Source: an archaeon (lineage in GTDB: Archaea; Nanobdellota; Nanobdellia; Pacearchaeales; GW2011-AR1). Taken from it: a stretch of DNA of 43,771 nt. The notes below the pieces were generated by a model. That model did not search any database, was not told where the DNA came from, and was given only the letters and a program-made list of their open reading frames with translations. Position numbers and translations under genes: made by a program. Shown here piece after piece: positions 5,831 to 43,771 of the stretch (position 1 is its first letter; each line of letters begins with the position of its first letter). The stretch spans positions 1-43,771 of the forward strand of contig JBAXEZ010000003.1 in the NCBI GenBank assembly GCA_037140195.1. Reading direction: 5' to 3'.

Positions 5831-5831
5831 T

Positions 5832-14019: not shown

Positions 14020-14020
14020 A

Positions 14021-26204: not shown

Positions 26205-26714
26205 TCAACTAGAGATTTTGACGCCTACATCAAGTCTTCCAAGCTCACAAATTTCTTGAACAACTCCTTCGTTTCTAACTGCCTTACAAATAGAAACAAA
26301 AGTCCCATATTCTACCACATTTGTCTGATTTGAGTTGTATACTTCGTAATAAGAACAATTTGCAGCAGGGCACCGTATATTTTTCACATTCATAGGAAAA
26401 ACTTTTCTCACTCTAATGGAAGCAACCGGCCAGAAGTTTTTATAGCTTTTAGATATCGTAGCGAAAGTGATTACTTTATCTTCATCAAGACACATAGTAC
26501 GCGAAGAATCACAATTCAACTCGGGCATATTGGAAATCGTTTCTACCGAAGATATTGCACTTTCTCGTTGAAGATTATTAAAATTTTCAGCAATTTTTCC
26601 AGATTGAATAGACAGAAAGAATAATCCTGCAAAAGTAAAAAATATAAACACAAACAGAATCATAAAAGTCATCTGCATAATCTTCATATCTGCTAATTTA
26701 TTCATCTCTACCAC
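26205..26714 (-). CDS. Membrane-anchored pilin-like Cys-containing protein
   Basis: NKLA/DMKIMQM followed by a hydrophobic helix (degenerate class III signal); paired Cys; GGAGG upstream of GTG. Confidence 0.6.
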   Translation of the reverse strand: MVEMNKLADMKIMQMTFMILFVFIFFTFAGLFFLSIQSGKIAENFNNLQRESAISSVETISNMPELNCDSSRTMCLDEDKVITFATISKSYKNFWPVASIRVRKVFPMNVKNIRCPAANCSYYEVYNSNQTNVVEYGTFVSICKAVRNEGVVQEICELGRLDVGVKISS

Positions 26715-27676
26715 AGTTTACATCCTCCTTCTCTTAGATTCTTCTTTTCCAAATCGTTTGCTAAATAGTAAACAGATTCCAAATCCTTAGCACTTGCATT
26801 TTGCAATATAATTGCAAACTTATCTAAATCAGTTTTTAATAAACTACTGCAGCCACGCATACTCATCAAATCTATTTTTCTAGATAAAATGTCTGCTACT
26901 CTAGATGAACGATAAAGTAATCTTTTAACATTACACTCATAAACATTTTTATCAGAAAGCAAAGCTGCATAGATTAAACTTCCAGAATAATAAGTTCGCG
27001 TTCCATTTTCATCAGTAATATATCCGAAGTCATAAGCGGAACTACATCTAGACTCGCTACACTCTCCTTTAACAGTAATTTCACATCCACTGGTCCCAAA
27101 ACAAATTTTCTTCGCACCATCCGAACAGGTGTTATTTCCCTCTTCCAATTGTAGCCCTATATTTGGTACATTCAAACCAGAAACTTCTTCCTCAATTTCC
27201 TTAGGTGGAAAAACAAAGCAGTAATCTTCTGTAGACATAAATATTAAATCAGTTACCTTATAGCCAGTATAAAATGGTTTAGAATAAACATAAAAAGTTT
27301 TTCCTTCCTGGAAATTTGAAAAAAGATATTTATTGAAGATTTTATATTCTCCAGGATTATCTGTCCAAGCCTGTCCGACGGAAGCCTTCGTCTGAACCGA
27401 AATAACATTTTCTCCAAATTTAGAATCGGTATCGCATTCGTTGTTTATTCTTGTGTCTCTCCTAAAAGTAATTCTAGAAGTAGAACCTTCTGCAAATCCT
27501 GCCTGTAGCGGATTCGTTATAATATCTAGAGATTTAGCCAGTTCGAATTCTGTTTGTTTTTGTAATCCGCTTCCAGCTTTAACTGCGCCATAAATTGCCA
27601 GAAGTAAAATCATTGAACCTGCAACAATTGCAAAAATTAAAACAAAATTAAACTCACCCTTCTTATTTAATTTCAT
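26708..27676 (-). CDS. Class III signal-peptide (pilin-like) Cys-rich protein
   Basis: MKLNKKG/EFNFVLIF. ATG 27676 preferred; the upstream MPTPEEFGK is translated repeat sequence. Confidence 0.7.
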   Translation of the reverse strand: MKLNKKGEFNFVLIFAIVAGSMILLLAIYGAVKAGSGLQKQTEFELAKSLDIITNPLQAGFAEGSTSRITFRRDTRINNECDTDSKFGENVISVQTKASVGQAWTDNPGEYKIFNKYLFSNFQEGKTFYVYSKPFYTGYKVTDLIFMSTEDYCFVFPPKEIEEEVSGLNVPNIGLQLEEGNNTCSDGAKKICFGTSGCEITVKGECSESRCSSAYDFGYITDENGTRTYYSGSLIYAALLSDKNVYECNVKRLLYRSSRVADILSRKIDLMSMRGCSSLLKTDLDKFAIILQNASAKDLESVYYLANDLEKKNLREGGCKLW

Positions 27677-27726
27677 TTTGCCAAACTCCTCGGGAGTTGG
27701 CAAGGTTGTTCAAAACAACCGCTATC
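27674..27726. repeat. Structured intergenic repeat, copy 3 (hairpins 1-2 and GCTATC)
   Basis: CATTTTGCCAAACTCC..GGAGTTGGCAA-GGTTGTT..AACAACC-GCTATC. Confidence 0.75.
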
Positions 27727-27764
27727 TTTCTTGGTAACTACGAACAAAGTGAGTAATCTGTTAA

Positions 27765-28268
27765 TCATTTTATAGTAACTCCTCTGTCATAATATCCTTT
27801 AACGATTCTTATAGTACTGCCGCCAGAAACATCAAAGCACAAGGGATTTTTAACTTGGGTAGTTTTACTTAGATTTAGATATTTAATCGTCTTGTATGGC
27901 ATATCGCAGGCTTTCTGCGTAGGTAGGATAAAGGTGTTAGCCGCGTAAACTGCGTACATGCTCAGCTCTTCATAGGCACTATTAGGCCCCGTAACTTTTT
28001 CAGTTAAATTAGCAAAACAGAGTTGTTTAATTCCTGGAATATTCACTTCCATTTCAAAATCAGAAGAAGAAGACCTGTAAGCCTCGCCTACCTTGTCTTG
28101 AAATGAATCATAAAATGCTCCAACTTGCGTACAGCTCTTGATATTCAAAAAAGCCTTTATACCATATATTGCAGTAAATATAAAAAATAAAATTAAGATA
28201 AGTGAGAAGATCCAACCAAAGGACATCCCTATTGCTCCGTCACCCTTTTTATTCAATATGCTTCTCAT
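27765..28268 (-). CDS. Class III signal-peptide (pilin-like) protein
   Basis: LNKKG...MSFGWIFSLIL hydrophobic helix; 4 Cys. Confidence 0.7.
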   Translation of the reverse strand: MRSILNKKGDGAIGMSFGWIFSLILILFFIFTAIYGIKAFLNIKSCTQVGAFYDSFQDKVGEAYRSSSSDFEMEVNIPGIKQLCFANLTEKVTGPNSAYEELSMYAVYAANTFILPTQKACDMPYKTIKYLNLSKTTQVKNPLCFDVSGGSTIRIVKGYYDRGVTIK

Positions 28269-28411: not shown

Positions 28412-28412
28412 T

Positions 28413-31400
28413 TTATACTCCTAAGAAATTTTCTGTAGGTCTTACAATCAAAGAGCAATCAACCGGTTCAGATCTATATTCGTCTCTACATTTAATAAAA
28501 TACTTTTTATCAGGGAACCATTCTGTTACGTGTGTTGTTGAATTAGCGTATGGCATTTGAGTTCCTTCACTGAATAAATAATCACAACTTTCAGAGTTGT
28601 ATACACATTCAGAATTTAATGGAGTTACGAGTTTCAAATATCCTTCTTCTTCGTAAGCTCTAGCAACTACCGGTGCATTTACATCAATACTTACTTTGAA
28701 TTTTGTCGTCGTATTAGCTACGTTTCCGCCCGCGTCTATACATCTAATGAAATAAGTATGTGTTCCGTCTCCCAAATCTAATCTTTGTGTATGCACTCCG
28801 TCTTGTTTGTCGGTATCAAAGAATTGTATAAAACTACTTGGAGAATTAGTTGTAGAATAATAACAAATTGCTTTGTTGTCTTCACATCCAAATAATGTTT
28901 CAGCATATAACTCAACTGGTGCAGGCCTAACTGCTCCGTATATTGTCTCATTTGGTCTTACAACCTTTAATTTCAATTGATTGCTTCCCCTTAAATTAAA
29001 TACATAACTTTCTTTGTTTGTGTTTCTCTTACTTTCATTTACTGTGCCGGAAGGTTGGTCCTTACATCTTACATAGAAGTTTGTTCCATCTCTTGCAATT
29101 CCATTTAATTTTGTTACACAAGTATAACTTTCTATCGCATTAATCTCTGCAGGATTTGTGCTACAAGTCATTTCAGTCTTCATTTGTTCATAATCTCTGT
29201 CTGTGAAATCCCATCTACACTGTGCTGGCTCATTTACATAAAATTCTACAGTTGCATTTTCAGCGTCTGCAGGAACACATCCTTTATTTTTGATTGAAGT
29301 TCCATGAACAACTGGTGCTGTGTTATCTGGAGAAGGATCTACACATAATTTAAGTGCATAATCTGCTTCATTTGCATTTCCTGCAGCATCCTTACATCTT
29401 ATATAGAACAATAATTCTTTTCCATTCTGTAATGTAATAGATGAATTCTTTATATCTGCAGATGAAGGCAAATTCAAAGACTCAGTATGGTTATAAGAAT
29501 ATAAGTTACTTCCTCCCATGAAAGTTGCCATTCTCGAATAATTTCCTTTAGCTTCAATATCAATCTTACATTGTGAAGGTTCATTCGTTGTGATTGCAAA
29601 TTTAAGTGGTGTGTAAGCAGGTATACATCCATTAGATTTACTACTCTCGATGTTAAATCCTGCTCCTGGTGGCATTTCTACAACATGAGTATAAGAATAT
29701 CCTTCAGTTATTTCAGATTCCAATGGTTTAATTACTGGGGGAGAAGAATCTCTTGGATTAATATTTACACATCTTTCTTCCTTAGTTCCTTTGTTCACAA
29801 TTGCACAAGATTGTCCTAATGATTTACATCTATATTCAGAACATGGAAGTGTTGCATCATTACATAACTCGCAATCTTTTCCACCCTGGGGTGCTTGCCA
29901 TGGTAAACAAGTAAATGTAACTGTTTCAGTGCTTGTTTTTTCTTTAGACCACATTGCATTATATATTAACCATGCTGATGCTGCGCCAATTGCTGCAGAT
30001 GTCCAAGGAGAAGATAGCCAGTTTCCACCAATATCTACTTTTTTACTCCCAAGTGTTGCTTCTCCAATTTTTCCGTCAAGCTTTCCATTGATACCGCCCC
30101 TCCCTAGAAAAGCATAAGCAGTTTTTCCAATTAAAATTCCTCCAACAATACCTGCAGTCATTGCTGCAACTTCTTGTTTATCTTTAATAAATAAACTTCC
30201 TAAAGTCATTGTTAATCCTGCCGCAATTCCTGCCCATTTTAGTCCTTCCATTACTTGTCCAACTCCAAAACTCCAATCAGTTCCGAAAACTTTCATTGTG
30301 CCTCTATCTAAAAATTTTCCGTTATTGTTATAGTTAGCTCCGCTAGGGGATACCCACTTTGTAGGATTGCCGGTTGCATCAAATTCAGTAGGTACAGATC
30401 CCTCAGGACCTACATATGGTGATTTTCTTAATAAACCATCGCTCCCCTGGACATAAACTTTTCCATTAATTTCTATATAGGCATTTTCTCCCTTATTTGA
30501 TATTACTCTCCCAATTCCTCCACTGAATGTTTTAGTTTTAGGGTCATATACAAATCCGTCAGGTAATTTATAACTTCCATCTGGGAGCGGTCGAATTTCT
30601 TCCCATGTGGTTCCCCCAGACGTGGAAGATAATATCTGGGTCGTTTCTCGCCCGTTATTCCCCACAATTGTTCTGGTTTTATATCCGGTCACTACATCTC
30701 CCTGAGTAGTATAACTAACTGCACTCTCTTTATATGCTAATTTACTTGGGTCAATTGTTCCGCCTACTAGAATTTTATTAGTTGATAACTCTCGATCTAA
30801 AAGAATGGTATTTCTTCCACTCATTACAAAATATTCCCCCTCCTCATTTTTTGAAAAAGTTTTTACTTGAATATTGTTCTTACCATCATAAACTTGGAAT
30901 GCATTTTGTACGGTGTATGTTTCTAGTGGTGCCTGAGCTATAATTGTTTCTGCAGTTTGAGCAATAGTTGGTGCACCATATTGGGAAGTTAATGTAGGAA
31001 TAGTAGTTACTGGTGCTACTTTGTAATCTAGGTTAGTAGAATAAAATCCTTCAGTACTTAGTTTAACATTGGGGGTAGGTGCTCTGTTCGCAGCAGCTTC
31101 TTGATTTGCAGTAACTTGCTCTTCTTGGCCAAGAGTTGATACGTCCGTTTGAGGCGTAGTGCTTGCTAATGTCAAGCTCGCAGTTTCCAGGTTATAAAGG
31201 CCCCCTATATCACTTGCAGTAAATGTCCTCTGATTGTAAGTTTGCCCACCAGTGACTACCCAAGTGTTCTCTCCGTATTTTTTAATGCTCTCACCATAAC
31301 CCCTATCTAAAATTGATCCGACGGGTGCGCTTTGTAAATCGTTAACATTAATCGCGCTAACAATCTTTGTCTCACTTCCAATCATATATGCAAAAGCAAA

Positions 31401-31460
31401 TGTAGAAATAATTAACATTAATGCAAAACTTACCGAAGTTATTTTTGCTGTTTTATTCAT
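28413..31460 (-). CDS. Large exported protein: Thr/Gly-rich N-region, Gly-rich hydrophobic core, Cys-rich beta-rich C-module
   Basis: N-terminal hydrophobic signal; CLPWQAPQGG.DCELCN...CSEYRCKSLGQSC; repeated Y.RC.D..GN units. Confidence 0.75.
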   Translation of the reverse strand: MNKTAKITSVSFALMLIISTFAFAYMIGSETKIVSAINVNDLQSAPVGSILDRGYGESIKKYGENTWVVTGGQTYNQRTFTASDIGGLYNLETASLTLASTTPQTDVSTLGQEEQVTANQEAAANRAPTPNVKLSTEGFYSTNLDYKVAPVTTIPTLTSQYGAPTIAQTAETIIAQAPLETYTVQNAFQVYDGKNNIQVKTFSKNEEGEYFVMSGRNTILLDRELSTNKILVGGTIDPSKLAYKESAVSYTTQGDVVTGYKTRTIVGNNGRETTQILSSTSGGTTWEEIRPLPDGSYKLPDGFVYDPKTKTFSGGIGRVISNKGENAYIEINGKVYVQGSDGLLRKSPYVGPEGSVPTEFDATGNPTKWVSPSGANYNNNGKFLDRGTMKVFGTDWSFGVGQVMEGLKWAGIAAGLTMTLGSLFIKDKQEVAAMTAGIVGGILIGKTAYAFLGRGGINGKLDGKIGEATLGSKKVDIGGNWLSSPWTSAAIGAASAWLIYNAMWSKEKTSTETVTFTCLPWQAPQGGKDCELCNDATLPCSEYRCKSLGQSCAIVNKGTKEERCVNINPRDSSPPVIKPLESEITEGYSYTHVVEMPPGAGFNIESSKSNGCIPAYTPLKFAITTNEPSQCKIDIEAKGNYSRMATFMGGSNLYSYNHTESLNLPSSADIKNSSITLQNGKELLFYIRCKDAAGNANEADYALKLCVDPSPDNTAPVVHGTSIKNKGCVPADAENATVEFYVNEPAQCRWDFTDRDYEQMKTEMTCSTNPAEINAIESYTCVTKLNGIARDGTNFYVRCKDQPSGTVNESKRNTNKESYVFNLRGSNQLKLKVVRPNETIYGAVRPAPVELYAETLFGCEDNKAICYYSTTNSPSSFIQFFDTDKQDGVHTQRLDLGDGTHTYFIRCIDAGGNVANTTTKFKVSIDVNAPVVARAYEEEGYLKLVTPLNSECVYNSESCDYLFSEGTQMPYANSTTHVTEWFPDKKYFIKCRDEYRSEPVDCSLIVRPTENFLGV

Positions 31461-31888
31461 TTTTTATCTCCTCTATCAATTAACTCAAACAGTAGTTTAA
31501 TTATCTTTTCAAAATCTTCTTTATTAGAATCTAAAAATTCTTTAGGCACATCTTCTCCATAATAATCTAAACGATTTCTAAAAAATGACATTTGTTGGAT
31601 TAAATATGCTTCTTTATCTAAAGATGGATTTTCCTTCAAAAAGTAACTAATTAAACACTGGTGATTTTTACTTCTCATTCCAAATTTAAGCATATATGCA
31701 GTTAGTAGTTCTTTAATAACTTCATAATAATCTTCTGTAGCAAAATCAACATCATTCAATTCTTTCCTTGCTCGAACAAGTCTTTTTTCTGCTTTCTTTT
31801 TTAGAGACTTAATTTTTTCTAAATCAGCATCTACTATTTTAATAAAATCTCTTTCACATAATGTCCAATTCATTATCTCATTTTTCAT
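31457..31888 (-). CDS. HEPN-domain protein (putative toxin)
   Basis: Helical 143-aa protein with YYE..KELL.A, SKNHQC and FRNRLDYYG (Rx4Y variant); coupled to the MNT gene. Confidence 0.7.
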   Translation of the reverse strand: MKNEIMNWTLCERDFIKIVDADLEKIKSLKKKAEKRLVRARKELNDVDFATEDYYEVIKELLTAYMLKFGMRSKNHQCLISYFLKENPSLDKEAYLIQQMSFFRNRLDYYGEDVPKEFLDSNKEDFEKIIKLLFELIDRGDKK

Positions 31889-32403: not shown

Positions 32404-32459
32404 TTTTTAAGCATACCATTTTTTGATATCTTTAAATAATTTAGTTACTTTTTTATTTC

Positions 32460-32846
32460 TCATCTTGAAAACCACGCTCTTATTTTATTTACTATTTTTT
32501 GAAAATTATTTAAATCTGTCTTCTCGATAGTCCCGCCAACAATTGCATTTCCAGTTATTGAACCTGCCCCAGAATTTCCAGTTGCAACAAATTCTTCACT
32601 AGCCGCAGATTCGACTCTTTTCAAAGAATCAAGATTCATTTTTTGTTTGATATATTCTGAGATAGTTAAACTCTCTGAAGGTTTAATCGTTATATTTGTA
32701 ACAACAATCTCATTTCCATTTTTGTCGACTATAATATCTCCTGTTTTCAAATCTTCTACTTTTACTACTTTTAATTCCACAGATGAAACTAAAGAAAACA
32801 TTAGTACAAATACAAACACCAAACTAATTATCTTATGCTTTAACAT
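32460..32846 (-). CDS. Exported small protein with a Hint-like fragment and an ITGNAI motif
   Basis: Signal peptide; KVEDLKTGDIIV; GSITGNAI. Confidence 0.6.
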   Translation of the reverse strand: MLKHKIISLVFVFVLMFSLVSSVELKVVKVEDLKTGDIIVDKNGNEIVVTNITIKPSESLTISEYIKQKMNLDSLKRVESAASEEFVATGNSGAGSITGNAIVGGTIEKTDLNNFQKIVNKIRAWFSR

Positions 32847-34809
32847 AAACTGTTTCTCCTTGTTTTAATTGATATTTACTATTAATAACATAATCGAGTA
32901 TTGCTTCACCAGTTCCGGGATTTAATCTTTGATTTAATACTCCTAAATCTGATTCAAGGAAATAATATGATCTATTTTTATATTTCCATTCGTAACCATC
33001 ATTTACAAATGCTTCGTTAAAGTTAAATCCTGCGCCACAATCCCCCATAGCCGAACAAACTGCATTTGCCTTAGCCGCCCATTCCGGTTTGACCTCAAAT
33101 TTAATTCCTTTCTGAGTTAAACATTCATTATCTCTCGCACTAACACTGTCTAATTCTTGAGAACCGGTAAGTAGATTTTTCTTATAAGTCTTTGTAACTT
33201 CAACTGTACATGTAGCTGTTGCCTGTCCACAAACTTGTGAACTGCTTCCACTTTGCCAGAAATCAAGTCCAGGCGAAACCATTGGAACACAAACACCATT
33301 GTCAACCGAAGATCTGTTTACTCTCCAAGCATTAGTCAATTCATTTTCTTCCCAAGGACCTACACCAGAACCAACAGTGGTTTTAATCACATCGCCAGTC
33401 AGTGAAGTAACTGCATTAGTTGTAGAGGTTAGCGCTGTAACTGAATCCTGTGCAGTTGTAGACGCTCCCGAAGAAGCCGAAGCAGAAGAAACTGGATTTG
33501 TAAATGGTTGTGTTGTTCCAACAGCATATTTTGGATTACCTAAACTAATTCCATCTACTGCTTCAGCCCAGATACAATCTCTCTGGTCTGTATTTTCACA
33601 ATCATCTTTATTTGTAACTGAAACGCAATCTTGCCATCTGTTTACTCTACATGCAGCAACCGAATATTCTCCTGCACTGGTTTGAATTCCAGAGTGTATA
33701 CAAATTTGATTTCTAAAATCATCACAAGCTTCAACCTGAACTCCACCATCTACACAAATTTCTCTATAATGTCTACTTCCTGCAGGATCTGCAGCATTTC
33801 CAACTTCTCCGTCATAAACACACCAAGATTCTCCATTTAATCTAACATTTCCATCCCGGTCTGCACATTTTGTAGTCTTACAATAATTATCGACATTTTT
33901 TGGTTTACCAATCCCAAGGCCACTAAGTAAAGAACTATCCCATGGTGCACATCTACTTCCGGCTAAATAATCACAATTTCCACATGTCTTACTATCTCCT
34001 GTCTTTGCACAAATAGTATCTGGATTAGTAACTCTTCCTTTATTCCAACTTAAATTTCCTTGATTAGAATAAACATTTTCTCTATTTCCTAAAGAATCAA
34101 ACCAATAAGTTTTTCCTTCATAACATTGTGTGGATGCTTGTCTCGCACAGTTAGGAACACCGAGTTCTTCAGCAGAACATAATAATCCTTTATAGAAATA
34201 TTTTCCAGATAAGTCATCGAGTGCAGAAGCATTTAATATTTCGCTACTTGTTGTAGTTGTTCCGCCGCATTGCTGTCTTGTTGTAAACTTACAAGTCTTT
34301 ACTCCCGCTTCGAAAGAAACACAAGCTCCCTCGTCTTGGGAATTCGCAGCAGCGACGCACGCAGTTTCGGAAGTTATCGAAGTTCTAAAATCAATTTTTA
34401 TTCCATAGAATGTAGATAAGCTTTTACATCTAGTCATCGTAACAAAAGAAGCTTGGTCTGCGAGTATACAACATCCAAGTTTACACTGTGCAAGTTCATT
34501 TGCTTTCTTATCACTCCAAGTTCCGCCATTTGTTTGGCAAACTCTCTGAGGAACATTTTCTAAACAAAGTCCTTCTTTAGAATCATAACAAGTTCCAAGT
34601 TTACAAAAAGAAGTTGACTCACAAGAAGTAGGAACTATTTTTCCAGTTTTATCACAAGTACTTTCAGCACCATTTAAACAGAATGCTCCCGAAATTGTTT
34701 TTTCACAGCAAACAGAAGAAGTTGATAAAACTGATTCAGCCGACACATTTCCAATTATAAAAATAAACATAAACGCTAAAACAGCGATGATACCTAATTT
34801 TTTAATCAT
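32833..34809 (-). CDS. Large secreted Cys-rich protein (N-module only)
   Basis: Signal peptide MIKKLGII...VSA; CCEKT.SGA.C, GCCIL, CGNCDY and NGESWC motifs; ATG 34809. Confidence 0.8.
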   Translation of the reverse strand: MIKKLGIIAVLAFMFIFIIGNVSAESVLSTSSVCCEKTISGAFCLNGAESTCDKTGKIVPTSCESTSFCKLGTCYDSKEGLCLENVPQRVCQTNGGTWSDKKANELAQCKLGCCILADQASFVTMTRCKSLSTFYGIKIDFRTSITSETACVAAANSQDEGACVSFEAGVKTCKFTTRQQCGGTTTTSSEILNASALDDLSGKYFYKGLLCSAEELGVPNCARQASTQCYEGKTYWFDSLGNRENVYSNQGNLSWNKGRVTNPDTICAKTGDSKTCGNCDYLAGSRCAPWDSSLLSGLGIGKPKNVDNYCKTTKCADRDGNVRLNGESWCVYDGEVGNAADPAGSRHYREICVDGGVQVEACDDFRNQICIHSGIQTSAGEYSVAACRVNRWQDCVSVTNKDDCENTDQRDCIWAEAVDGISLGNPKYAVGTTQPFTNPVSSASASSGASTTAQDSVTALTSTTNAVTSLTGDVIKTTVGSGVGPWEENELTNAWRVNRSSVDNGVCVPMVSPGLDFWQSGSSSQVCGQATATCTVEVTKTYKKNLLTGSQELDSVSARDNECLTQKGIKFEVKPEWAAKANAVCSAMGDCGAGFNFNEAFVNDGYEWKYKNRSYYFLESDLGVLNQRLNPGTGEAILDYVINSKYQLKQGETVYVKA

Positions 34810-35644
34810 ATGTATTTCCATATCCTGGTGGCCAAGCGTAACTTCTTGATGCAAACCTGTATTTAATATCATTCTTATCCGTGATTATATATAATTTAAC
34901 ACTATCATCTCTTCTTATTTTTTCAATTTTTAAGTCAGGATAATAAAACATAAAGCTAGAAACATCTGAGTCACCATAAGAAGACTCAAATTGCAAGATT
35001 GAATTAGCAACCATTATCACTGTGTATAAGTCTGAATAAACATTTACATCGATTGACTTTGAAAATGATGACGCTCCGTCTGCAGAACGTACTGTTGGCG
35101 CATTAATTTTAATGCTTACTCCGTCAGGATCAATAGAAAGATTAGTTTTAATTGTGCCCGGAGTAATTTCATTTCCCTGTGCTTGCAATTCTGCAATAGC
35201 TCCGTCGTAACATTCTTGTATCTTAGGTTTCATTGCGGCTGCTAAAGCTTTTTCAAAGCTATCCTTTAAGAAAGGCTGTTGAACAACACATGGTTTGTAA
35301 TATTCGTTAGTATAACAAATAAAAGTGTAATTTTCGTCCAGATATTGGCTGGTAAATGTAGGATTAACAACTCCTGCAGCCAAACTTAATTTTTCAATTT
35401 GTGGAGCCAGGCCACTTTCAATACATCTTTCCAAATATGGTTTTTTAGCATTTGTTGAAAATACGGTTGGTCCAAGATAATAAAAATAAAATAAAATAAT
35501 AGCAACAATCAGTATTGCAATTATAATAAAAATTGTTACCTGACCTCGTTTATCCAAAGAGAATATTTGACGAGGATCCCTGTGGGAACCACGCTTATTT
35601 AAATTAGTGGAACCTCTTTTTTGATTCATGTTGTTTTTAGCCAT
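34802..35644 (-). CDS. Class III signal-peptide (pilin-like) protein, paralog A
   Basis: KRG/QVTIFIIIAILIVAIIL; C..C.Y.PC.Q.P pattern. Confidence 0.8.
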   Translation of the reverse strand: MAKNNMNQKRGSTNLNKRGSHRDPRQIFSLDKRGQVTIFIIIAILIVAIILFYFYYLGPTVFSTNAKKPYLERCIESGLAPQIEKLSLAAGVVNPTFTSQYLDENYTFICYTNEYYKPCVVQQPFLKDSFEKALAAAMKPKIQECYDGAIAELQAQGNEITPGTIKTNLSIDPDGVSIKINAPTVRSADGASSFSKSIDVNVYSDLYTVIMVANSILQFESSYGDSDVSSFMFYYPDLKIEKIRRDDSVKLYIITDKNDIKYRFASRSYAWPPGYGNTYD

Positions 35645-35660
35645 TTCTCCTTTATAAAAG

Positions 35661-38600
35661 TTATTGTTGTATATCGGATAATTTTAGTTCAAGTGTACAT
35701 CCATCTAGCGGCATATTGCCTTTAGTATCTCTACATTTAATGAAATATTTATCATTTGCTTTTTCATTCAATTTTACTCCATGAGTATCGCTATAAACTC
35801 CCGAGGCCTTGTCAAATCCGAAGTCACAGCCAATAGATTCATTCAAAACAAACAAACATTCAGCATTTTCATTAGTTCTCAAAATTAAATTTCCTGTTTC
35901 AATGTAAGCTCTCGTGATTACTGGAGATTCACTATCAATGAAAACTGTGAAGTTAGTGTGTGCGCTTGCAACATTACCTGCTGTATCTTCGCAAACTACG
36001 TCAACGTCTTTGGTTCCTTGGCCTAAAGAGCTAAATGGTTGTATATGTGTTTTATTTCCAGTTGTTAACATTAATGAATAAACGTCTCCATAATAAGGCA
36101 ATCTGAAACTACACGAAGCATCTCCTCCGTTTATGCATCCTTCAGTTCTTACTCTTAAACTTACTGTTGCATTTGCATTAACTTCCACATTTCCTACCGG
36201 CTCTATTGAAGTAATAGCTAAACCAGTTTCACAAATCTGCGCACTATACTCTTTCTGTACAACATTTCTTTTAACGAGTCCTGCTTCAACGAGTCCTGGT
36301 TGGTCTTTACACTCAATATATAACTTTTTGTTTGTAGTATAATTTTCAATAAATGCCGCGCATAACCATTCACCATAATATCCCATAGAAGAACCAGTTA
36401 CACAAATAAGTGGAACTGAACCATTTCCAAAACTAAATGTTTGTACAGGTTTATACTCTCCAATTGTTACTTCATCACCTGTCTGCGTTATAGTCATAGG
36501 AATTATTTCAGAAGTGTTTTCCGTTCCCCAATTCATATTGTACGAGTCAAAAGAATATCTACACTCTGCCGGTTCATTCAAATATACAAATAGGTTTAAT
36601 CCTGTTGCATTATTTGCGAGATAAGCATTATTGTCTGGCGCAAATCTAGTAATTAGTGGTGGAGTTAAGTCTGGTCCTTCTGCTTGCTTGACCTGAACTG
36701 TGAAAGGAGCATCGTTAACCAATCCTGCATAGTTTTGACATCTAATATAGTATTCATTGTCTCCCTCTTCCATCGGAATAGTTGTTTCAAGGAGTTCATC
36801 ATGCTCTCCAATTGTTGCATGAGGGGACAAAGCAATTTTGTGATGTCGTCCATCTACTTTTCCAGTCGAGTAGTCGAGTGTTGACGCCATTACAAATCTC
36901 ATCTGATCAAAAGTCATCGAATGATTGATGTCAACTTTGCAAACTGCTTCTTTGTCGGTAATAATTCCAAATGTAACGGGTTCCCATGCGTTTACTGCTT
37001 TAGCTGTATTCTTTTTATTTTCAATTCTAAATCCAAAACTAGAAACATTTGTATAATCATTTCCGCTAGTAATTATTTCTTTCCAAGGATCAATCTTCGC
37101 AGCCCAAACATCAGAAAGGGTTGCACAATAACCTGGTTCACCATTCTCAATAAAATAATGACAATTATTTCCTATACTTCTACATTTATCTTCCGAGCAA
37201 GGTCTTACATCACTATTACATTCTTCACACTTTCCAATTAATGGCGGTTGCCAAGCTTCGCATTTAAATTCGGTAACATAATATTCATTGTCTGTTCCTT
37301 GTGCTGTCAACATATATACAATTGCTGCAATTGCTATAGCAATACATAGAAGCGGGATTGCACATACCGCAACACCAAACGAGGCAAACCCCGGAGCCGT
37401 TGCTCCAGAGACTACTGAGATTGATGTCCAAAAACTTCCTGCAATAATTGTGCTTGACAAAGTAGACGCATATACTGCAGCACCAATACCTACAGCTACT
37501 GCTCCTGCAGTTACTCCTCCTGCCCATGCTGCCGTAGTAACTGCTGCTTCTCCTGGGGGTTGTCCTTTTGACATCATCTTACCAATAAGAGAACCAACTG
37601 TAAATGCTATAGCTGCTAATGCAAATGTAGCTAATAAACTTGAGGCGGTAGTTCCGGCAAGAGCTTTAGATCCTGCGCCCATTGCAGCCAATCCCCCCAA
37701 AGCCCCCAAAACAGCTGTAGCTTGTGCAGTTCCCGATTCTGAAGGAGCACCGACACTTCCAGAAAACGCATTTGAAATCATTGAACCACTCGAACCAAAT
37801 TCGGAACCGAATTGAGTAAGCATTGAAGCCCCACTTTTCCATTTAGTCAAATCACTAAGTGTTTTTGTAGTGCCCATTTCATTTGCTTTTTGATCGTCTT
37901 TCAAATCCCCAGTTAGATAACTTTCAGAAATATTATATCCTTCCGTAGTATATCCTTGTTGTGCTTTACCTTTTTTGTCAATGTAAATTCTATTCACGTC
38001 AAAACCCGAACGACCCAAGTCTCCCTGAGTGTTATATTGAATCCCGCAACTTCCGAGTGAACGACATCGATCATTAAGTGCATCCATCATCAAACTAACT
38101 TGTTGTTTAGATTGAGAAACGGCCTGCATGTTACATTCTGGGTTTTCTTTATCTACTGCGGATGAACTTATCATTGAAGAAGTAGTTTGAATATGTGAAA
38201 CACAGGTAAATGTTCCCAAACCACAAAGACTATTTGTCTCGGACTGACTTCCACCATATCCTGCATTCGATTCTTGTTTTCCCGCACTGCTAAATGGATT
38301 TGACACAACACTTGAAGACCAGAATTGATAACCTGGAGTAAATCTTGGAACACAATGTGTGATAACCGTATTCATTCCCTTCCCAACCAATCCTGCCTTT
38401 CCCTGTTCCTCGTTAGCAATTTGTTTAAATCCGGGTAATTCACTGTACTTTTCATTTCCAGGAATTTCGTTAAACATTACACATTGTGGCAGAGCATCAC
38501 ATTTTGTTTTAACTTTATTATAACTATCTGCATCATTAGCATAGATACACGAACGCCAATCGTTAATAACACACATCGCATCGCTTCTCTTCAATGCAGT

Positions 38601-39746
38601 ATCTTTATTCTCAATACAAATTTCCTGATTAAAATCCGCACATCCATCCAATTTTATTTCACCTTCAAAACAAGTTGCTACATAACTTCTTGTTCCAACA
38701 GGATTAGAAATGTCTTGTGAATTAATTGCATCTGAAATACACCAACTTTCTCCATGCTTTCTTCCTCCCGCACAATCTAAATTTTTACAAACGTTATCTC
38801 CCATTTCGGGTTTTGGTAAATTTTGTCCAGCAATATATTTTGTACAAATACTTCCGGAAGTATATTGGCAATTTCCACAAAATTCGGCAGGTCCATTACA
38901 AGAAGCGCTAGGTGCAATTACCTTTTCCCAGTATGTTTGATCTTTTCCCTTGAATGAATCATAAACATTTGCCTTATTTCCACAACTATCTAAAAAGTAA
39001 ACTCTATCATCTCCACTCATACAAGAAGTTTTAGTAGTTTTTACACAGCTAGTATTCAACTCTTTTGAAGTACATAAATATCCTTTCTTAAATTCTTGAT
39101 TTGCCCTATTGCAATTTTCTTTTGTAGTAAATATACAGTTCTTCAAATCAGAATAATCCGTAGAAGAAGTAAGACATGCTCCCTCATCTTTTAAATCAGC
39201 ATAAGAATCACAGGAGTTTTTCGCGTCCAATGGCTTAAAGACTTTGAGTATATCGTATTCATTTGAAAGTTTAGTGCATTCTCGCGTAGTTGTCATTGCC
39301 GCACCATCGCCTAAAATACAACAGCCTACTTGACATTGTGGAATACTACATGTTGCACTTGCATCCCATTTTCCTCCGAATAAAGTACACGATTCTTTAG
39401 GCGCGTTTAGTGAACAAATACCTGAATCAGAATCATAGCAGCAACCTTTTTGACATTCGCTAACCGTATTGCAACTTGTACCAATCAAATCAGTTTTACA
39501 CAAAGCTTTATCCACAAGTAAAACATCTTGACAAGTTGCTCCGGTTATTGTTTCTTTACAACATCCCGCAGGAACATAATCACTCGCAGAAACGGTCGGA
39601 ATAATTGGTCTAGCTAAAAATTGTATAACTGAAGATTCTTTTTGAAATACATCTGGTAAATCAGTACTTACAAAATATGAAAATGAAATTACTGAAAGTA
39701 CAACTAGCATTAATTCAAATATTGAAATAAGTTTTCGATTTATCAT
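35661..39746 (-). CDS. Very large exported Cys-rich protein (N-module + Gly/Ala hydrophobic core + C-module), paralog A
   Basis: About 1360 aa; ATG 39746 in an ATGA overlap; motifs shared with both 32833-34809 and 28413-31460. Confidence 0.8.
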   Translation of the reverse strand: MINRKLISIFELMLVVLSVISFSYFVSTDLPDVFQKESSVIQFLARPIIPTVSASDYVPAGCCKETITGATCQDVLLVDKALCKTDLIGTSCNTVSECQKGCCYDSDSGICSLNAPKESCTLFGGKWDASATCSIPQCQVGCCILGDGAAMTTTRECTKLSNEYDILKVFKPLDAKNSCDSYADLKDEGACLTSSTDYSDLKNCIFTTKENCNRANQEFKKGYLCTSKELNTSCVKTTKTSCMSGDDRVYFLDSCGNKANVYDSFKGKDQTYWEKVIAPSASCNGPAEFCGNCQYTSGSICTKYIAGQNLPKPEMGDNVCKNLDCAGGRKHGESWCISDAINSQDISNPVGTRSYVATCFEGEIKLDGCADFNQEICIENKDTALKRSDAMCVINDWRSCIYANDADSYNKVKTKCDALPQCVMFNEIPGNEKYSELPGFKQIANEEQGKAGLVGKGMNTVITHCVPRFTPGYQFWSSSVVSNPFSSAGKQESNAGYGGSQSETNSLCGLGTFTCVSHIQTTSSMISSSAVDKENPECNMQAVSQSKQQVSLMMDALNDRCRSLGSCGIQYNTQGDLGRSGFDVNRIYIDKKGKAQQGYTTEGYNISESYLTGDLKDDQKANEMGTTKTLSDLTKWKSGASMLTQFGSEFGSSGSMISNAFSGSVGAPSESGTAQATAVLGALGGLAAMGAGSKALAGTTASSLLATFALAAIAFTVGSLIGKMMSKGQPPGEAAVTTAAWAGGVTAGAVAVGIGAAVYASTLSSTIIAGSFWTSISVVSGATAPGFASFGVAVCAIPLLCIAIAIAAIVYMLTAQGTDNEYYVTEFKCEAWQPPLIGKCEECNSDVRPCSEDKCRSIGNNCHYFIENGEPGYCATLSDVWAAKIDPWKEIITSGNDYTNVSSFGFRIENKKNTAKAVNAWEPVTFGIITDKEAVCKVDINHSMTFDQMRFVMASTLDYSTGKVDGRHHKIALSPHATIGEHDELLETTIPMEEGDNEYYIRCQNYAGLVNDAPFTVQVKQAEGPDLTPPLITRFAPDNNAYLANNATGLNLFVYLNEPAECRYSFDSYNMNWGTENTSEIIPMTITQTGDEVTIGEYKPVQTFSFGNGSVPLICVTGSSMGYYGEWLCAAFIENYTTNKKLYIECKDQPGLVEAGLVKRNVVQKEYSAQICETGLAITSIEPVGNVEVNANATVSLRVRTEGCINGGDASCSFRLPYYGDVYSLMLTTGNKTHIQPFSSLGQGTKDVDVVCEDTAGNVASAHTNFTVFIDSESPVITRAYIETGNLILRTNENAECLFVLNESIGCDFGFDKASGVYSDTHGVKLNEKANDKYFIKCRDTKGNMPLDGCTLELKLSDIQQ

Positions 39747-40552
39747 ATTCCTGCGGGCAACACGCACGTTTTAATTGCAAATTTAATTTCACGATCAGTC
39801 ATTCTATCCTTTAAAGTATAAATCTTTGTCTGATCAGAAGTTCTAGTGGTAGAAATTATTATATCATTATAAGATTTCATCCAATTAAGTTTGTTAAATT
39901 CACAAAGAGTCGATTCATAGTTTACAATCGTCTGTACAAGTTTTATCATATCATAAAATTTCGTCCCATAGGAATATTCAAAACCCGAAATTGTATATGC
40001 ATTATTATCTTTAGAAATATACATTGTTTCGTTTAGTTTAATATTTATTGAACCTTGAACAATATCTACACTAACTTCTCCGGGTTTATGTGTGACTTGA
40101 TAATTTTCATCTTCTAAGTCTTTGTATACTTGTGTCAGGCAAATCTTTGTGTCTCTTGTAACTTTGTTTTCCATTATTTGTTTAATTCTCATAAAGAATG
40201 CAGGATCCTGTGGAATACAAGCCTTGTAAAATTCGGATGCAATGCATAGGTAAGGAACTTTTTCTCTTTCAAATAAAACATAATTACTGGAATTAAAATT
40301 TGGATAAGTATTTTCTTTCAAAAGAATAGATTCGCTTTCCATCACCGAATTTCTCATACAATTTTCTATATACTGTTTTGGATTTGCAGTAGAACTTTGG
40401 CTAAATTTAAACCATCCGCCGAAATACACAATAGATAAAATAATAGCAACAATTAGTATTGCAATTATAATAAATATTGTTACTTGACCTCGTTTTCCGT
40501 AAAACGAGGATCCCTGGGTGGACCACCTGCTATTTATTCTTTTATTGTTCAT
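39743..40552 (-). CDS. Class III signal-peptide (pilin-like) protein, paralog B
   Basis: KRG/QVTIFIIIAILIVAIIL, identical to paralog A; ATGA coupling on both sides. Confidence 0.8.
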   Translation of the reverse strand: MNNKRINSRWSTQGSSFYGKRGQVTIFIIIAILIVAIILSIVYFGGWFKFSQSSTANPKQYIENCMRNSVMESESILLKENTYPNFNSSNYVLFEREKVPYLCIASEFYKACIPQDPAFFMRIKQIMENKVTRDTKICLTQVYKDLEDENYQVTHKPGEVSVDIVQGSINIKLNETMYISKDNNAYTISGFEYSYGTKFYDMIKLVQTIVNYESTLCEFNKLNWMKSYNDIIISTTRTSDQTKIYTLKDRMTDREIKFAIKTCVLPAGI

Positions 40553-43500
40553 TTCTTAAAGTCTATCAATTTAATTATTTGTGTGCAACCATTAGGTACA
40601 TTTCCTTTTTTATCTTCGCATCTTATATACAACGTTTGTTTTCTAGTTTTGTCTGTCAAAGTTATTGCGTGTTTCGTTATAAATGTGTTTGACTCCGATA
40701 TTTTAAATTCACATCCTTTAGTTTCATTAATATTAACTGCGCAATTTGCTTCTTCATTCGTTTCTATAACTAACTTTTCTCCTTCCCCATATGCTCTAAC
40801 TATTCCTGGAGCATTATCGTCATAAAACACAGTAAAGTTAACACTTGCATTTGCAACATTTCCTGCCAGGTCTTGGCATTCAACATTTACAGTTCTTTCT
40901 CCAATCCCTAGGCTTGTAAGTGGTTGTCTATGGACACTTTTTCCCGTATAAAAGAATGAGGAATAAGTGTCTCCATAATAGGGAAGTTTGTATGCGCATT
41001 CTGCTTCTCCATTGTTAATACACCCGGCGGTTTTTACTTCTAAAGTTACTTCTTGCGAGCTATTAACTTCGACAATTCCCTTTGGAGTTATTGAATTAAT
41101 CTCTAGCCCGGTTTGGCAAACAAAAAATTCATATTGGAAACTAAATGAGTTTTGATTTCTTTTTAGTATTTCAGTTTCAACTAAACCTGGCTGATCTTTA
41201 CATTTAACGTACAATTTATTGGTTTGCGTAATATTAGGGATAATGGCAATACAAGGCCATTCGCCATAGAATCCTTGATCTTTTCCAGTTAAACAAGAAA
41301 AGTTATTTGGCATTTCTTCAAAAAAGTTGTAATCATAATCAATAGAATATCTACATTCTGCAGGCTCATCTAAATATAACCACATCGTTAAATTAGTTGA
41401 ATTATATGCAATAAAAGATTTATCTAAAGGAGTAATTCTGACAATTTCTGCAGCGGTTAAATCTGGCCCTTCTGCCTGTTTAACACTAACAACAAATGGT
41501 GCTCCGTTCACTTGCCCTGCAAAGTTTTGACAGATTATATAATACTCATTCTCACCTTCGTTCATAGGCGGAGTAGTCATTCCTTGATCTAGCTCACTCT
41601 CGCCAATTGTTACGTGTGGAGAAAGTGAAATCCAGTGATGCATTCCATCTACTTTTCCGGTAGCGTAATTTTTTTCTGAGAGTAATGTGTATCTCATTTC
41701 GTCAAATTTCTTGGAGTGATTTGTGTCCATCTTACAAATTGCTTCTTTGTCAGTAATTATTCCGAACCTAACTGCTTTCCATGCATCAACTTCTTTAGCA
41801 TTAGTTTTGTTACTTATAATTCTAAATCCTGAAACGGAAATGTTTGTATACTTATTTCCAGGATTTAATTTTTCATTCCACGGACTTATCTTTGCGCTCC
41901 AAGTATCCATTAGGGTAGCACAATAACCTGGCTCTCCATTTTCTACAAAATAACGACAATTATTTCCAATACTTCTACATTTATCTTCCGAACAGGGTCG
42001 TACATCACTATTGCATTCTTCACACTTTCCAACTAGTGGCGGTTCCCAAGCTTTGCACTCGAAGGATGTTATAAAATATTCATTATCTTCTCCTGTAAAC
42101 GTAGAATATATCATCATTATAAGTGCTACTATTGCAACAACTACACAACACGGTACGCAAGCACATAGTCCTATTATACTAGAAAGCCATACCCCTCCTA
42201 GCATACCTAATCCGGACATAATACCTATAAATGCCGTAGATGTTCCGGGAGTCATTCCTGCAGATTTAGCAATCATCTTACCTACATAAGCGCCGATTAT
42301 TGCACAACCTGCCGCTACAACTGCTATGTGGGCTCCCATTACTAATCCTGTTCCTAATCCTGAAGCCGCACCAGATGCTGCTCCACTTGCCGCTCCACCG
42401 ACTGCTCCTGCTGCACCTCCCGTAGCTGCTCCGCTAGCAGCCGCACCAGATATTGCAGCCAGTGCACCAGATATTGCTCCTCCTATCACTCCTCCAGAAA
42501 CAGATCCAACAAGAGACAAGGCTGCCGTTTGAGTCCCATAGTCAATAGAACTTTTACCATCTGCACTATTAATTGCTCTTCCAGCCTCTCTAACTGTTTG
42601 ATTAAGTGGTTCCCCTCCAGGAGAATTAGAAATTATACTAGTTTGAATTCCATTTGTAGTGTCTAGAAGATATTGTCCTCCATTCAGAACTTCTGTTAAC
42701 TCATTAAGAGTTTTAATTTCTCCCATTTTAATTGGTGCTTGAGATTTTTTCAGCGTTTCATTAAGATATCCTTCTGTAACATTATATCCTTCAGTTGTAT
42801 ACTCGGTATGGCTCTTTCCCTTTTTATCTACATAAACTCTTTCTACTTTAAATCCTGCACTTCCCAGCTCACCTTGAGTATTATATTGAATACCGCAACT
42901 TCCCAGAGATCTGCACTTTTCATTCAGTCCTTCCATCATTAAAGAAACTTTTTGATTTGACTGTGAAATGGCCTGCATATTACATTCGGGATTTTCAGCA
43001 TCATGTGGGGTAGGATTAATCATCGGTTGAGTTGTTACAATATGTGAAACACATTTAAAGGTACCTAGTCCGCAGATTTGATTAGTTTCCTGTGTACTAC
43101 CTCCGTAATCTAAGCTAGAGCTGGTTTGTGTACCCAGATTACTCGAGAAAGGATTAGAATAAGAGTTAGTGGTCCAGAACTGATATCCGGGAGTAAATCT
43201 TGGAAGACACTGCATTACATAAACATTCATCCCCTTTCCAACAGCACCGGCCCTACCCTGATCATCATTTGACACTCCTTCCTTAAAACCGGGTAGTCCT
43301 TTGAATTTTTCATTTCCAGGAATATCATTAAACATAATGCATTGAGGTAGCTCATTACACTTCTTCTTTATTTTCGTATAATCATCAAAGTCATTTGCAT
43401 AAATACAGGAACGCCAGTCATTAACGATACAACTAGCTTCACTATATCCTACTGAAGAATCTTTATTTTCAACGCAAATTTCTTGATTGAAATCTGCGCA

Positions 43501-43770
43501 TCCTTCTATTTTTATTTCTCCTTCGAAGCAACTTGCAACATAATTTCTAGATCCTACTGCAGAAGTTGCAATTCCGCTAGAGTTTGCAGCATCTGAAACG
43601 CACCAACTTTCCCCATGTTTTTTTCCATTCGGGCAATTTAAATTTTTACAAACATAATCTCCTAAAGCAGGTTTGATTAAATCTCTTCCAGAAAAATATT
43701 TGGTACAAATGCTTCCAGTTAAGTAATTGCAATTCCCACAAACTTCTGGCGAACCAGAACAAGATTGGCT
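40549..43770 (-). CDS. Very large exported Cys-rich protein, paralog B (5' end beyond the window)
   Basis: The frame stays open to the window edge (SQSCSGSPEVCGNCNYLTGSICTKY...HGESWC) and is colinear with paralog A. Confidence 0.8.
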   Translation of the reverse strand, partial: SQSCSGSPEVCGNCNYLTGSICTKYFSGRDLIKPALGDYVCKNLNCPNGKKHGESWCVSDAANSSGIATSAVGSRNYVASCFEGEIKIEGCADFNQEICVENKDSSVGYSEASCIVNDWRSCIYANDFDDYTKIKKKCNELPQCIMFNDIPGNEKFKGLPGFKEGVSNDDQGRAGAVGKGMNVYVMQCLPRFTPGYQFWTTNSYSNPFSSNLGTQTSSSLDYGGSTQETNQICGLGTFKCVSHIVTTQPMINPTPHDAENPECNMQAISQSNQKVSLMMEGLNEKCRSLGSCGIQYNTQGELGSAGFKVERVYVDKKGKSHTEYTTEGYNVTEGYLNETLKKSQAPIKMGEIKTLNELTEVLNGGQYLLDTTNGIQTSIISNSPGGEPLNQTVREAGRAINSADGKSSIDYGTQTAALSLVGSVSGGVIGGAISGALAAISGAAASGAATGGAAGAVGGAASGAASGAASGLGTGLVMGAHIAVVAAGCAIIGAYVGKMIAKSAGMTPGTSTAFIGIMSGLGMLGGVWLSSIIGLCACVPCCVVVAIVALIMMIYSTFTGEDNEYFITSFECKAWEPPLVGKCEECNSDVRPCSEDKCRSIGNNCRYFVENGEPGYCATLMDTWSAKISPWNEKLNPGNKYTNISVSGFRIISNKTNAKEVDAWKAVRFGIITDKEAICKMDTNHSKKFDEMRYTLLSEKNYATGKVDGMHHWISLSPHVTIGESELDQGMTTPPMNEGENEYYIICQNFAGQVNGAPFVVSVKQAEGPDLTAAEIVRITPLDKSFIAYNSTNLTMWLYLDEPAECRYSIDYDYNFFEEMPNNFSCLTGKDQGFYGEWPCIAIIPNITQTNKLYVKCKDQPGLVETEILKRNQNSFSFQYEFFVCQTGLEINSITPKGIVEVNSSQEVTLEVKTAGCINNGEAECAYKLPYYGDTYSSFFYTGKSVHRQPLTSLGIGERTVNVECQDLAGNVANASVNFTVFYDDNAPGIVRAYGEGEKLVIETNEEANCAVNINETKGCEFKISESNTFITKHAITLTDKTRKQTLYIRCEDKKGNVPNGCTQIIKLIDFKK

Positions 43771-43771
43771 T

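Follow-up and report, generated by a model that had tools for sequence, protein, structure and literature searches.

A conserved cassette encoding pilin-like and giant cysteine-rich exported proteins in a member of the Pacearchaeales

The priming and tip complex of bacterial type IVa pili consists of the minor pilins FimU-PilVWX and PilY1, and the pseudopilus tip of the type II secretion system (T2SS) consists of GspH-I-J-K; PilY1-type tip adhesins carry a C-terminal beta-propeller and often a vWA domain. Few uncultured archaea are as widespread as Pace- and Woesearchaeota, which are thought to depend on other cells; we know of no attachment apparatus that has been defined for them. Here we describe a cluster of genes for pilin-like and giant cysteine-rich proteins at positions 26205-43771 of contig JBAXEZ010000003.1 (assembly GCA_037140195.1; Pacearchaeales), a stretch of 43,771 nucleotides called the window below, which is one whole contig of a genome of 1.08 Mb (116 contigs, 83% complete). 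Judged by sequence comparison, the window holds an expanded copy of a putative surface cassette that much of the Pace-/Woesearchaeota has in common. We tentatively read this cassette, at somewhat below an even chance, as a type IV filament-related surface complex that displays giant adhesin-like proteins.

Among the themes described for archaeal type IV pilus (T4P) loci in passages of Makarova et al. 2016 (PMC4858521) is the association of minor pilins with a large Cys-bearing protein and an S-layer-like protein. The cassette resembles archaeal type IV filament loci in its class III signals, in several small pilin-like genes in a row, in the association with an S-layer gene, in large exported proteins with conserved cysteines, and in the presence of peptidase, ATPase and platform genes in the genome. 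It differs from them in that the cassette itself contains no ATPase or platform gene and no member of a Pfam or NCBIfam family, in that its giant protein, here called G, is predicted to be polytopic with a Gly/Ala helix bundle between two ectodomains, and in that G and a pilin-like protein, P, form strictly one-to-one modules that are tandemly duplicated, one G usually being split. Passages of a 2026 census of type IV filament (T4F) systems describe these as widespread except in Asgard and DPANN archaea (PMC13705601).

With the PilY1 and GspH-I-J-K complexes the cassette shares four or five low-copy pilin-like proteins, a surface-displayed non-pilin of at least ~1,100 aa, and the lack, in some members, of an acidic residue early in the mature helix, whereas its signals are of the archaeal type, G itself appears to be membrane-anchored, and neither a propeller or vWA domain nor homology to these complexes was detected. 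With the EppA-dependent (Epd) pili of Methanococcus maripaludis, T4F 'system 1', it shares Gln at +1 (in P and in two further families, z and w) and several pilin genes per operon; unlike them, P has no Glu at +5, and the window members of P, x, y and z gave no relevant Pfam match at E <= 0.1, in a library that we take to have included PF04021 (Class_IIIsignal/DUF361). To our knowledge no giant Cys-rich partner exists for Epd pili. The closest functional analogies would thus be archaeal T4P loci with minor pilins and Cys-bearing proteins, and bacterial minor-pilin/PilY1 or pseudopilus-tip complexes.

Conservation of the cassette and co-variation of its proteins

A scan of one genome per species yielded 565 matching stretches, from which 78 loci were fetched and kept; synteny was established from our own calling of open reading frames (ORFs) and BLAST against the window proteins. 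The order that recurs in these loci is PCNA, P, G, P, Gn, Gc, x, y, z and w, followed by an opposite-strand helix-turn-helix (HTH) gene and then a gene for a protein of ~850 aa, where Gn and Gc are the two parts of a split G and x, y, z and w are further pilin-like families. All 78 loci are titled Pace-, Woese- or Nanoarchaeota or plain 'archaeon', in agreement with the DPANN origin assumed in an initial annotation made from the sequence alone, and the co-occurrence of pilin-like and Cys-rich genes in relatives, which had been set beforehand as the refuting test of that annotation, was found across them. The modules of the window are a truncated A, p269 with B, and p280 with C and D, followed by x, y and z (Table 1). 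Module copy number differs between genomes, and the window was counted as holding three and a half. Because the split of the second G recurs in the loci of relatives, it is a common and old state and not a local accident.

In the one locus that was annotated (L050) the ~850-aa neighbour matches PF05124 (S_layer_C) with E 6.7e-7, and a primase-like protein and two exported proteins are encoded upstream on the opposite strand. A histidine phosphatase gene, and not w, stands after z in the window and in the closest relatives (L008, L011, L018 and L059); in the present genome the w, HTH and S-layer-like genes sit together on another contig (C58), of which an 827-aa ORF carries the S-layer match. 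The two exported proteins (~400 and ~620 aa, without a Pfam family) are conserved, being encoded at 3401-6523 in L050 and at the corresponding place in L061 and L025; possibly they form part of this envelope neighbourhood as well.

Matches at E <= 1e-10 were found in 79 of 201 sampled genomes of the phylum and were lacking in the other 122, and full-length matches were concentrated in certain families. Relative to the L008 genome, identity was 89% for CTP synthase, 66% for B, 71% for the P of the second module (P2) and 75% for Gn; relative to the L022 genome the corresponding values were 76%, 67%, 57% and 71%. By these comparisons the cassette has changed more rapidly than a conserved enzyme; such rates are usual for surface proteins and leave adhesin and scaffold unseparated.

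In family scans none of the nine cassette proteins reached a Pfam or NCBIfam cut-off, the sole family hints among the large proteins being sub-threshold Big_13 matches in B and D (24.2 bits in D). The homologs of B (94 proteins of 750-2400 aa) are all hypothetical and their named sources are Pacearchaeota, Nanoarchaeota or Woesearchaeota; the TauE/SafE label of one of them is misleading and presumably derives from its hydrophobic core. A profile search with P returned 459 proteins, all unnamed and devoid of a Pfam domain. The profile of the N-terminal domain of G (N-domain) matched 1,728 representatives (clustered at 50% identity) at E <= 1e-3 and 1,057 at E <= 1e-30 in a library of 1.84 billion proteins. 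Lengths in this family are bimodal, at ~500-690 aa and ~1,100-1,500 aa, which correspond to the split and unsplit forms, and in the best 150 profile matches the N-domain begins within the first 144 residues. Matches in the ESM Atlas were to hypothetical Nanobdellota clusters only. A description of the cassette was not found in the literature, the supplementary files, including the DPANN loci figure of PMC13705601, falling outside that search.

Of the 74 full-length G genes away from locus edges, 72 have a P gene immediately upstream, as have 58 of 59 Gn genes, in contrast to a single one of 41 Gc genes; the presence of P before G and Gn but hardly ever before Gc links it to the N-domain. A tree of 130 P proteins falls into two clades (support 0.996) that match the two modules: the P1 clade comprises 65 P genes preceding a full-length G together with p269 of the window, and the P2 clade comprises 57 P genes preceding Gn, six preceding an unsplit second G, and p280. 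From this match it follows that the module duplication is ancient.

Co-variation was assessed in the 47 loci that hold P1, G1 (the G of the first module), P2 and Gn, with distance matrices and a partial Mantel test controlling for the other module. The partial correlation of P1 was 0.46 with the N-domain of G1 and 0.56 with its C-terminal part, and that of P2 with Gn was 0.53-0.55 (p 0.001 in each case), whereas non-cognate pairs of P and G gave values between -0.01 and 0.08 (p 0.08-0.52). The two halves of one G, used as control, gave 0.64 (p 0.001), so that each P tracks its cognate G almost as closely as two domains of a single protein track each other. This co-variation of sequences supports, without proving, a physical pairing of P and G.

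Properties of the pilin-like and giant proteins

P proteins are 250-280 aa long and carry the N-terminal motif [KR]GQVTIFIII, in which the Gln is invariant in 122 sequences; p269 and p280 are 27% identical to each other. The other small families have conserved N-termini of their own: KRGQ..SFGxIFSIILI in x, KKGFEFSFAWLFA in y, KKGQQEMVGFVLIV in w, and the consensus K[GA]QMKIQQMAFM in z, whose window member has Ala and not Gly at -1. The common pattern, a basic residue, G or A, then Q or F and ~20 uncharged residues, is of the archaeal class III type, and since the motifs are conserved family-wide, unlike ordinary Sec signals, the assignment is not one of chance. An AlphaFold2 (AF2) model of p280 with a mean predicted local distance difference test score (pLDDT) of 88.1 contains a membrane helix (residues 32-57), a low-confidence linker and an alpha/beta domain (residues 70-270). 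The term pilin-like refers here to the signal and not to the fold, because this domain has no significant structural neighbour.

The genome encodes a single prepilin peptidase (Peptidase_A24, contig C28), so that an enzyme of the kind called for by the pilin-type signals is present, as well as five PF00437 ATPase genes (six matches, two of them in one ORF) on C23, C19, C34, C43 and C28 and T2SSF platform genes on C23 and C90. As Peptidase_A24 occurs in 197 of the 201 phylum genomes, its phyletic pattern is uninformative. A T4P ATPase, TadC or PibD, whose linkage the initial annotation had proposed to survey, is not encoded in the locus; the genes of this machinery lie on other contigs.

Further genes with related signals were observed elsewhere in the genome. 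Six consecutive pilin-like genes with the N-terminus K[GA]/VSAVVATVLIIMITVAAVG (the slash marks the cleavage site) lie at C10:9728-15667, and three near-identical pilin genes with the same N-terminus stand beside an ATPase gene at C43:2468-4281. Besides genes for an ATPase of 552 aa and a T2SSF platform protein, a type IV pilus locus at C23:7241-13707 includes pilin genes with a bacterial-style site (KKG/FSLLE, Glu at +5) in an archaeal genome. At C67:1152-3086 a 644-aa protein combines a P-type signal and a P domain with an extra region of ~360 aa; it belongs to a family of proteins of 607-651 aa in relatives. In total, 16 P-like proteins of 607-799 aa were found, of which the first six inspected carry an extra C-terminal region, and none of the 16 had a BLAST match to G in a limited search.

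G proteins are in general ~1,250-1,400 aa long and possess a Cys-rich ectodomain of ~550 aa. A and B are full-length paralogs (50% identical over 1115 columns), C aligns to residues 46-414 of B (33% identity, E 6e-56), and residues 414-1010 of D align to residues 718-1365 of B (27% identity, E 2e-43). Because C matches the N-terminal and D the C-terminal part of B, the two are a split third copy of G (Gn and Gc), each with its own export signal, that of C being a signal peptide of the ordinary type. D consists of its own N-terminal helix, a Cys-poor region of ~350 aa, a weak Gly/Ala core, a Cys knot and four immunoglobulin (Ig)-like domains. Cysteines number 46 in A (4.3%), 66 in B (4.8%), 40 in C (5.9%) and 23 in D (2.3%), and in an alignment of 55 sequences of the G family 42 of the 58 invariant columns are Cys, distributed over both halves.

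At the N-terminus of G the motif KK-x-I-[S/A]-x-F-[E/Q]-[I/L]...S-x-F-A-F-S-Y is present in 116 of 175 full-length homologs. Among the 115 motif-bearing sequences that reach the [E/Q] position, this is E in 74% and Q in 14% (88% together), and the conserved residue recalls the acidic residue of pilin helices.

The fold of G was modelled with AF2 on a 1165-aa homolog from L033 (57 aligned sequences, pLDDT 81.6) and mapped onto B by alignment. In B this predicts a helix at the N-terminus (14-35), then a Cys-rich domain of mixed alpha/beta fold modelled with confidence (68-647), a linker without order, helices of low confidence (~700-822), a juxtamembrane Cys knot directly after the last of them (830-886) and four beta-sandwich domains (887-1364). 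The top Foldseek matches of the model were tandem Ig/fibronectin type III (FN3) ectodomains, with E values down to 8e-13 (PTP-delta), among them also fragments of a bacterial grappling-hook protein, desmogleins and titin. VIA Z values of 8-9.6 all fell inside model residues 748-1165, and a viral structure library again matched the model only via its Ig/FN3-like part. According to the model, the C-terminal part of G is therefore a series of four Ig/FN3-like domains with generic ectodomain folds; tandem domains of this kind are typical of ectodomains and adhesins.

No Pfam match to a beta-propeller or vWA domain was obtained for A, B, C or D, the structural matches of the G model being confined to its Ig-like part (model residues 748-1165), and S-layer family models of the PF05124 type likewise matched none of the four. 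The Gn profile had no match among PDB sequences at E <= 10. A fusogen or pore-former fold was not among the 50 listed matches of each search with the whole G model, the lists being filled by Ig/FN3 repeats.

Between the two ectodomains lies a segment that in 57 homologs measures 96-325 aa (median 200) and contains 15.3% Gly and 13.8% Ala. In B the core spans residues ~683-822 (window ~37302-37721; G 13%, A 19%) with four or five uncharged segments; in A it spans residues ~415-560 (G 17.5%, A 17%); and in D it is weaker (residues ~409-500), with three segments of 15-17 aa. A hairpin motif, G..IG..IAK..SPG, forms a basic loop between two small-residue helices. The core probably is a Gly/Ala-rich bundle of four membrane helices. 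An internal hydrophobic segment was absent in 7 of 94 homologs at the Kyte-Doolittle threshold used, a crude measure that missed D at 1.6. The four core segments examined (B, A, D and the L033 homolog) had no relevant Pfam match even at E <= 10; a resemblance to the glycine-zipper families of the GlsB/YeaQ/YmgE type was not borne out by this search.

A stand-alone module on contig C12 (9690-13866) encodes a P-like protein (354 aa) that ends in a His/Cys-rich tail, and a G-like protein (1039 aa, 54 Cys) in which the internal hydrophobic core is absent and the Cys-rich N-terminal part joins the Cys knot and Ig part directly. As both flanks of the core are Cys-conserved, are contiguous in this paralog, and 7 of 94 homologs show no internal hydrophobic segment at the threshold used, an even number of membrane passes with the basic loop in the cytoplasm is indicated; and since the halves are contiguous in the core-less paralog, both would lie on the outer side, with the core as an optional anchor. 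The simplest reading of the core is an anchor in the archaeon's own membrane, which perhaps self-associates through glycine zippers. The initial annotation had seen in the cores a membrane-inserting pore or translocon element, which found no positive support; the contiguity in C12, the range of lengths and the core-less homologs fit an anchor in the cell's own membrane, an outcome that the annotation itself had named as refuting this part of it.

Proposed function and alternative readings

In the surface complex that we tentatively favour, the single A24 prepilin peptidase would cleave P, x, y and z after [KR][GA], and the cleaved proteins, in the manner of minor pilins or pseudopilins, would build a priming complex or a short pilus-like stalk rooted in the membrane. 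The ATPase and platform needed for its assembly would be those of a type IV filament system encoded outside the locus. Each P would bind its own G, probably at the N-domain, and the two ectodomains of G, held out past the S-layer, would act as an adhesin towards partner cells or surfaces, while the Gly/Ala core would fix G in the membrane of the archaeon itself. Many DPANN archaea need contact with a host, and the present organism is probably host-dependent too; we infer that adhesion to a partner cell would be the most attractive function for an organism of this kind. The cassette is large, keeps a constant position in the genome and recurs in many genera, and none of its proteins is annotated; P, the ectodomains of G and the core are concrete targets for study in enrichments.

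Several results weigh against this interpretation. Pilin and archaellin families of Pfam and NCBIfam did not match p269, p280, p167 or p331 at E <= 0.1, and p169 had only an unrelated weak family match at that threshold. Compared with PDB sequences, the P profile reached an E value of only 0.17, which is not significant, with the N-terminal part of 9v96_A, a chain that bears the name 'Flagellin'. The p280 model shows no continuous pilin helix, its short transmembrane helix being followed by the linker and the alpha/beta domain; Foldseek returned nothing for it at E <= 1e-3, and its best VIA Z of 5.6 lies below noise level, with the pilin TTHA1218 at 4.6 and EpsI/J at 4.4. As G lacks G/A at the expected -1 position, it is not a canonical prepilin. 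ATPase, platform and peptidase genes are absent from the locus and from the flanks of the one annotated relative (L050). The pairing of P and G is not proven by their co-variation, because joint recombination or transfer of adjacent genes gives the same signal. Finally, the adjacency to an S-layer gene and PCNA in relatives fits a housekeeping role in the envelope equally well.

The foremost alternative, which we regard as a serious rival, though less probable than the adhesin-displaying complex, is a structural envelope complex in which the pilin-like proteins form stalks and G is a constitutive spike, pillar or S-layer-organising protein and not a host adhesin. ArlF and ArlG, which anchor the archaellum to the S-layer, provide a model for such a stalk. 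The succession of cassette, w, HTH and S_layer_C gene in relatives, with the w-HTH-S-layer block on C58 in this genome, speaks for it, as do the fixed core-genome place beside PCNA and primase-like genes, the presence of matches in 79 of the 201 genomes, and the several helices that anchor G in the membrane. Conversely, the 122 genomes devoid of a match argue that the cassette is not a universal part of the envelope, module copy number varies between genomes in a way expected of adhesins more often than of proteins that form a lattice, and identities to L008 are lower for the cluster proteins (66-75%) than for a housekeeping enzyme (89%), so that the former diverge faster. Even if it were only an envelope scaffold, the cassette would amount to a major, hitherto undescribed element of the surface of DPANN cells.

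It is improbable that the Gly/Ala hairpins leave the archaeon and insert into a partner membrane as a pore, fusion or translocation element on a pilus-like stalk. Such a machine would account for a composition of 15% Gly and 14% Ala, for the many small-xxx-small motifs and for the conserved hairpin motif, all of which exceed the needs of a plain anchor, and the general dependence of DPANN archaea on host contact is in its favour. Yet the core varies from 96 to 325 aa, and several paralogs have lost or shortened it or never had it, although conservation of the ectodomains persists; because of this variation and occasional absence, an anchor in the own membrane is favoured over host insertion. 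The basic inter-helix loop moreover obeys the positive-inside rule for the own membrane, the core has no Pfam match at E <= 10 and is given by AF2 as plain helices of low confidence, and when the whole G model was compared with PDB by Foldseek, the 50 best matches were all of the tandem Ig/FN3 type, with no fusogen or pore-former among them. There is likewise only a slim chance that the cassette is a general host-attachment organelle of Pace-/Woesearchaeota, in which glycine-zipper hairpins leave or bridge the own membrane and engage that of a partner for the transfer of metabolites or lipids. If this were true, type IV filaments would have gained a new branch, one whose dedicated pilin-like proteins each bear a giant protein with two ectodomains.

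Sugar-binding proteins of Sulfolobus are the model for bindosome-type tethering. A nutrient-capture system of this kind, in which class III signals tether binding proteins to a short pseudopilus and G captures substrates and not cells, is very improbable: class III signals are known on non-pilin archaeal surface proteins (in passages of PMC13705601), but substrate-binding-protein and transporter families match no member, there is no ATP-binding cassette (ABC) transporter among the neighbours in the one annotated locus (L050), and the tandem Ig and Cys-rich domains of G are more adhesin-like.

Layout of the cluster and other features of the window

The cluster consists of 12 co-oriented ORFs, all on the minus strand, which occupy the whole interval and are transcribed in the order A, p269, B, p280, C, s128, nucleotidyltransferase, HEPN-like, D, p167, p331 and p169 (Table 1). 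Four-nucleotide ATGA overlaps occur at four junctions (A/p269, p269/B when the ATG start is used, nucleotidyltransferase/HEPN and HEPN/D); three further pairs overlap, and the remaining gaps measure 16, 56, 61 and 144 bp. Five of the products are prepilin-like and four are large and Cys-rich, three of these with an internal Gly/Ala-rich hydrophobic core.

Table 1. Genes of the cluster at 26205-43771, in order of transcription
Feature	Position	Strand	Remarks
A, G-type giant Cys-rich protein	40549..43771	-	at least 1073 aa, 5' end lost at contig end; core ~42091-42528
p269, P1-type prepilin-like (KRG/QVTIFIII), directly upstream of B	39743..40552	-	P1 clade, support 0.996
B, full-length G	35661..39767	-	1368 aa from GTG; likely start ATG at 39746 (1361 aa)
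p280, P2-type prepilin-like, directly upstream of C	34802..35644	-	P2 clade; AF2 model
C (Gn), Cys-rich N-domain as separate exported protein	32833..34872	-	679 aa; probable start ATG at 34809
s128, small secreted protein between Gn and Gc	32460..32846	-	only in close relatives
HTH-nucleotidyltransferase, 172 aa	31885-32403	-	inserted pair, MNT/HEPN-type
HEPN-like protein, 143 aa	31457-31888	-	inserted pair, MNT/HEPN-type
D (Gc), anchor + Ig part	28413..31460	-	1015 aa; weak Gly/Ala core ~29961-30236
p167, x-family prepilin-like	27765..28268	-	31 homologs in loci
p331, y-family prepilin-like (KKG/EFNFVLIFA)	26708..27703	-	30 homologs; probable start ATG at 27676
p169, z-family prepilin-like, degenerate site (A/DMKIMQMTFM)	26205..26714	-	29 homologs

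The initial annotation had described at least 17.5 kb of mostly coupled or overlapping, co-oriented genes with five class III-like N-termini, four Cys-dense large proteins and an internal Gly/Ala stretch in three of them. This layout is borne out by the 12 ORFs and their seven overlaps, by a conserved motif in each pilin-like family, with the site of z degenerate as claimed, by the Cys counts and invariant Cys columns, and by the cores of A, B and, more weakly, D. That it recognised no named system also agrees with the family scans and literature searches, in which no part of the cassette is named. What it overlooked are the paralogy of A and B, the C/D split, the MNT/HEPN insert and the tandem Ig-like C-terminal halves.

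A scan for promoters and terminators gave no Sigma-70-type promoters above shuffled controls, a type of scan that is unsuited to archaea. Long contigs from four lake-water DNA runs were identical to the window and so offered no usable strain variation.

The nucleotidyltransferase has an N-terminal HTH and matches Polbeta with 32.5 bits (cut-off 26.9) and NTP_transf_2 with 32 bits (cut-off 21); its neighbour matches HEPN with 21.2 bits, 0.8 below the cut-off of 22. In their adjacency and 4-nt overlap the two genes resemble MNT/HEPN (type VII-like) toxin-antitoxin systems, from which they differ in the HEPN score below the Pfam cut-off and in the N-terminal HTH of the nucleotidyltransferase. An insert of identical type is found in locus L022, and in most loci there is none between Gn or s128 and Gc. 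On these sequence similarities the pair is taken as a toxin-antitoxin-like insertion unrelated to the surface cassette. One low-depth lake-water contig (X4) skips 31388-32487, its shorter side of 27 letters being too weak to use. The small gene s128 was found in five loci (L008, L009, L011, L013 and L022) and has only a weak PT-HINT family match, below cut-off.

Outside the cluster, a dense island of genes for NAD salvage and biosynthesis, unusual for a DPANN genome of 1 Mb, occupies 1-17060 and 18594-19271 on the plus strand. It encodes NAPRTase, an isochorismatase-like protein, NAD synthase, two cytidylyltransferase-type NMNAT-like proteins, NUDIX, ADP-ribosylglycohydrolase and NAD kinase, together with a nucleoside 2-deoxyribosyltransferase-like protein, NADAR, a PnuC transporter, a NadR-like kinase and a NadB-like flavoprotein; an NrtR-type regulator is encoded nearby. 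A stand-alone Peptidase_C39-like protein of 155 aa is encoded at 20492-20959, adjoining a tRNA-guanine transglycosylase gene.

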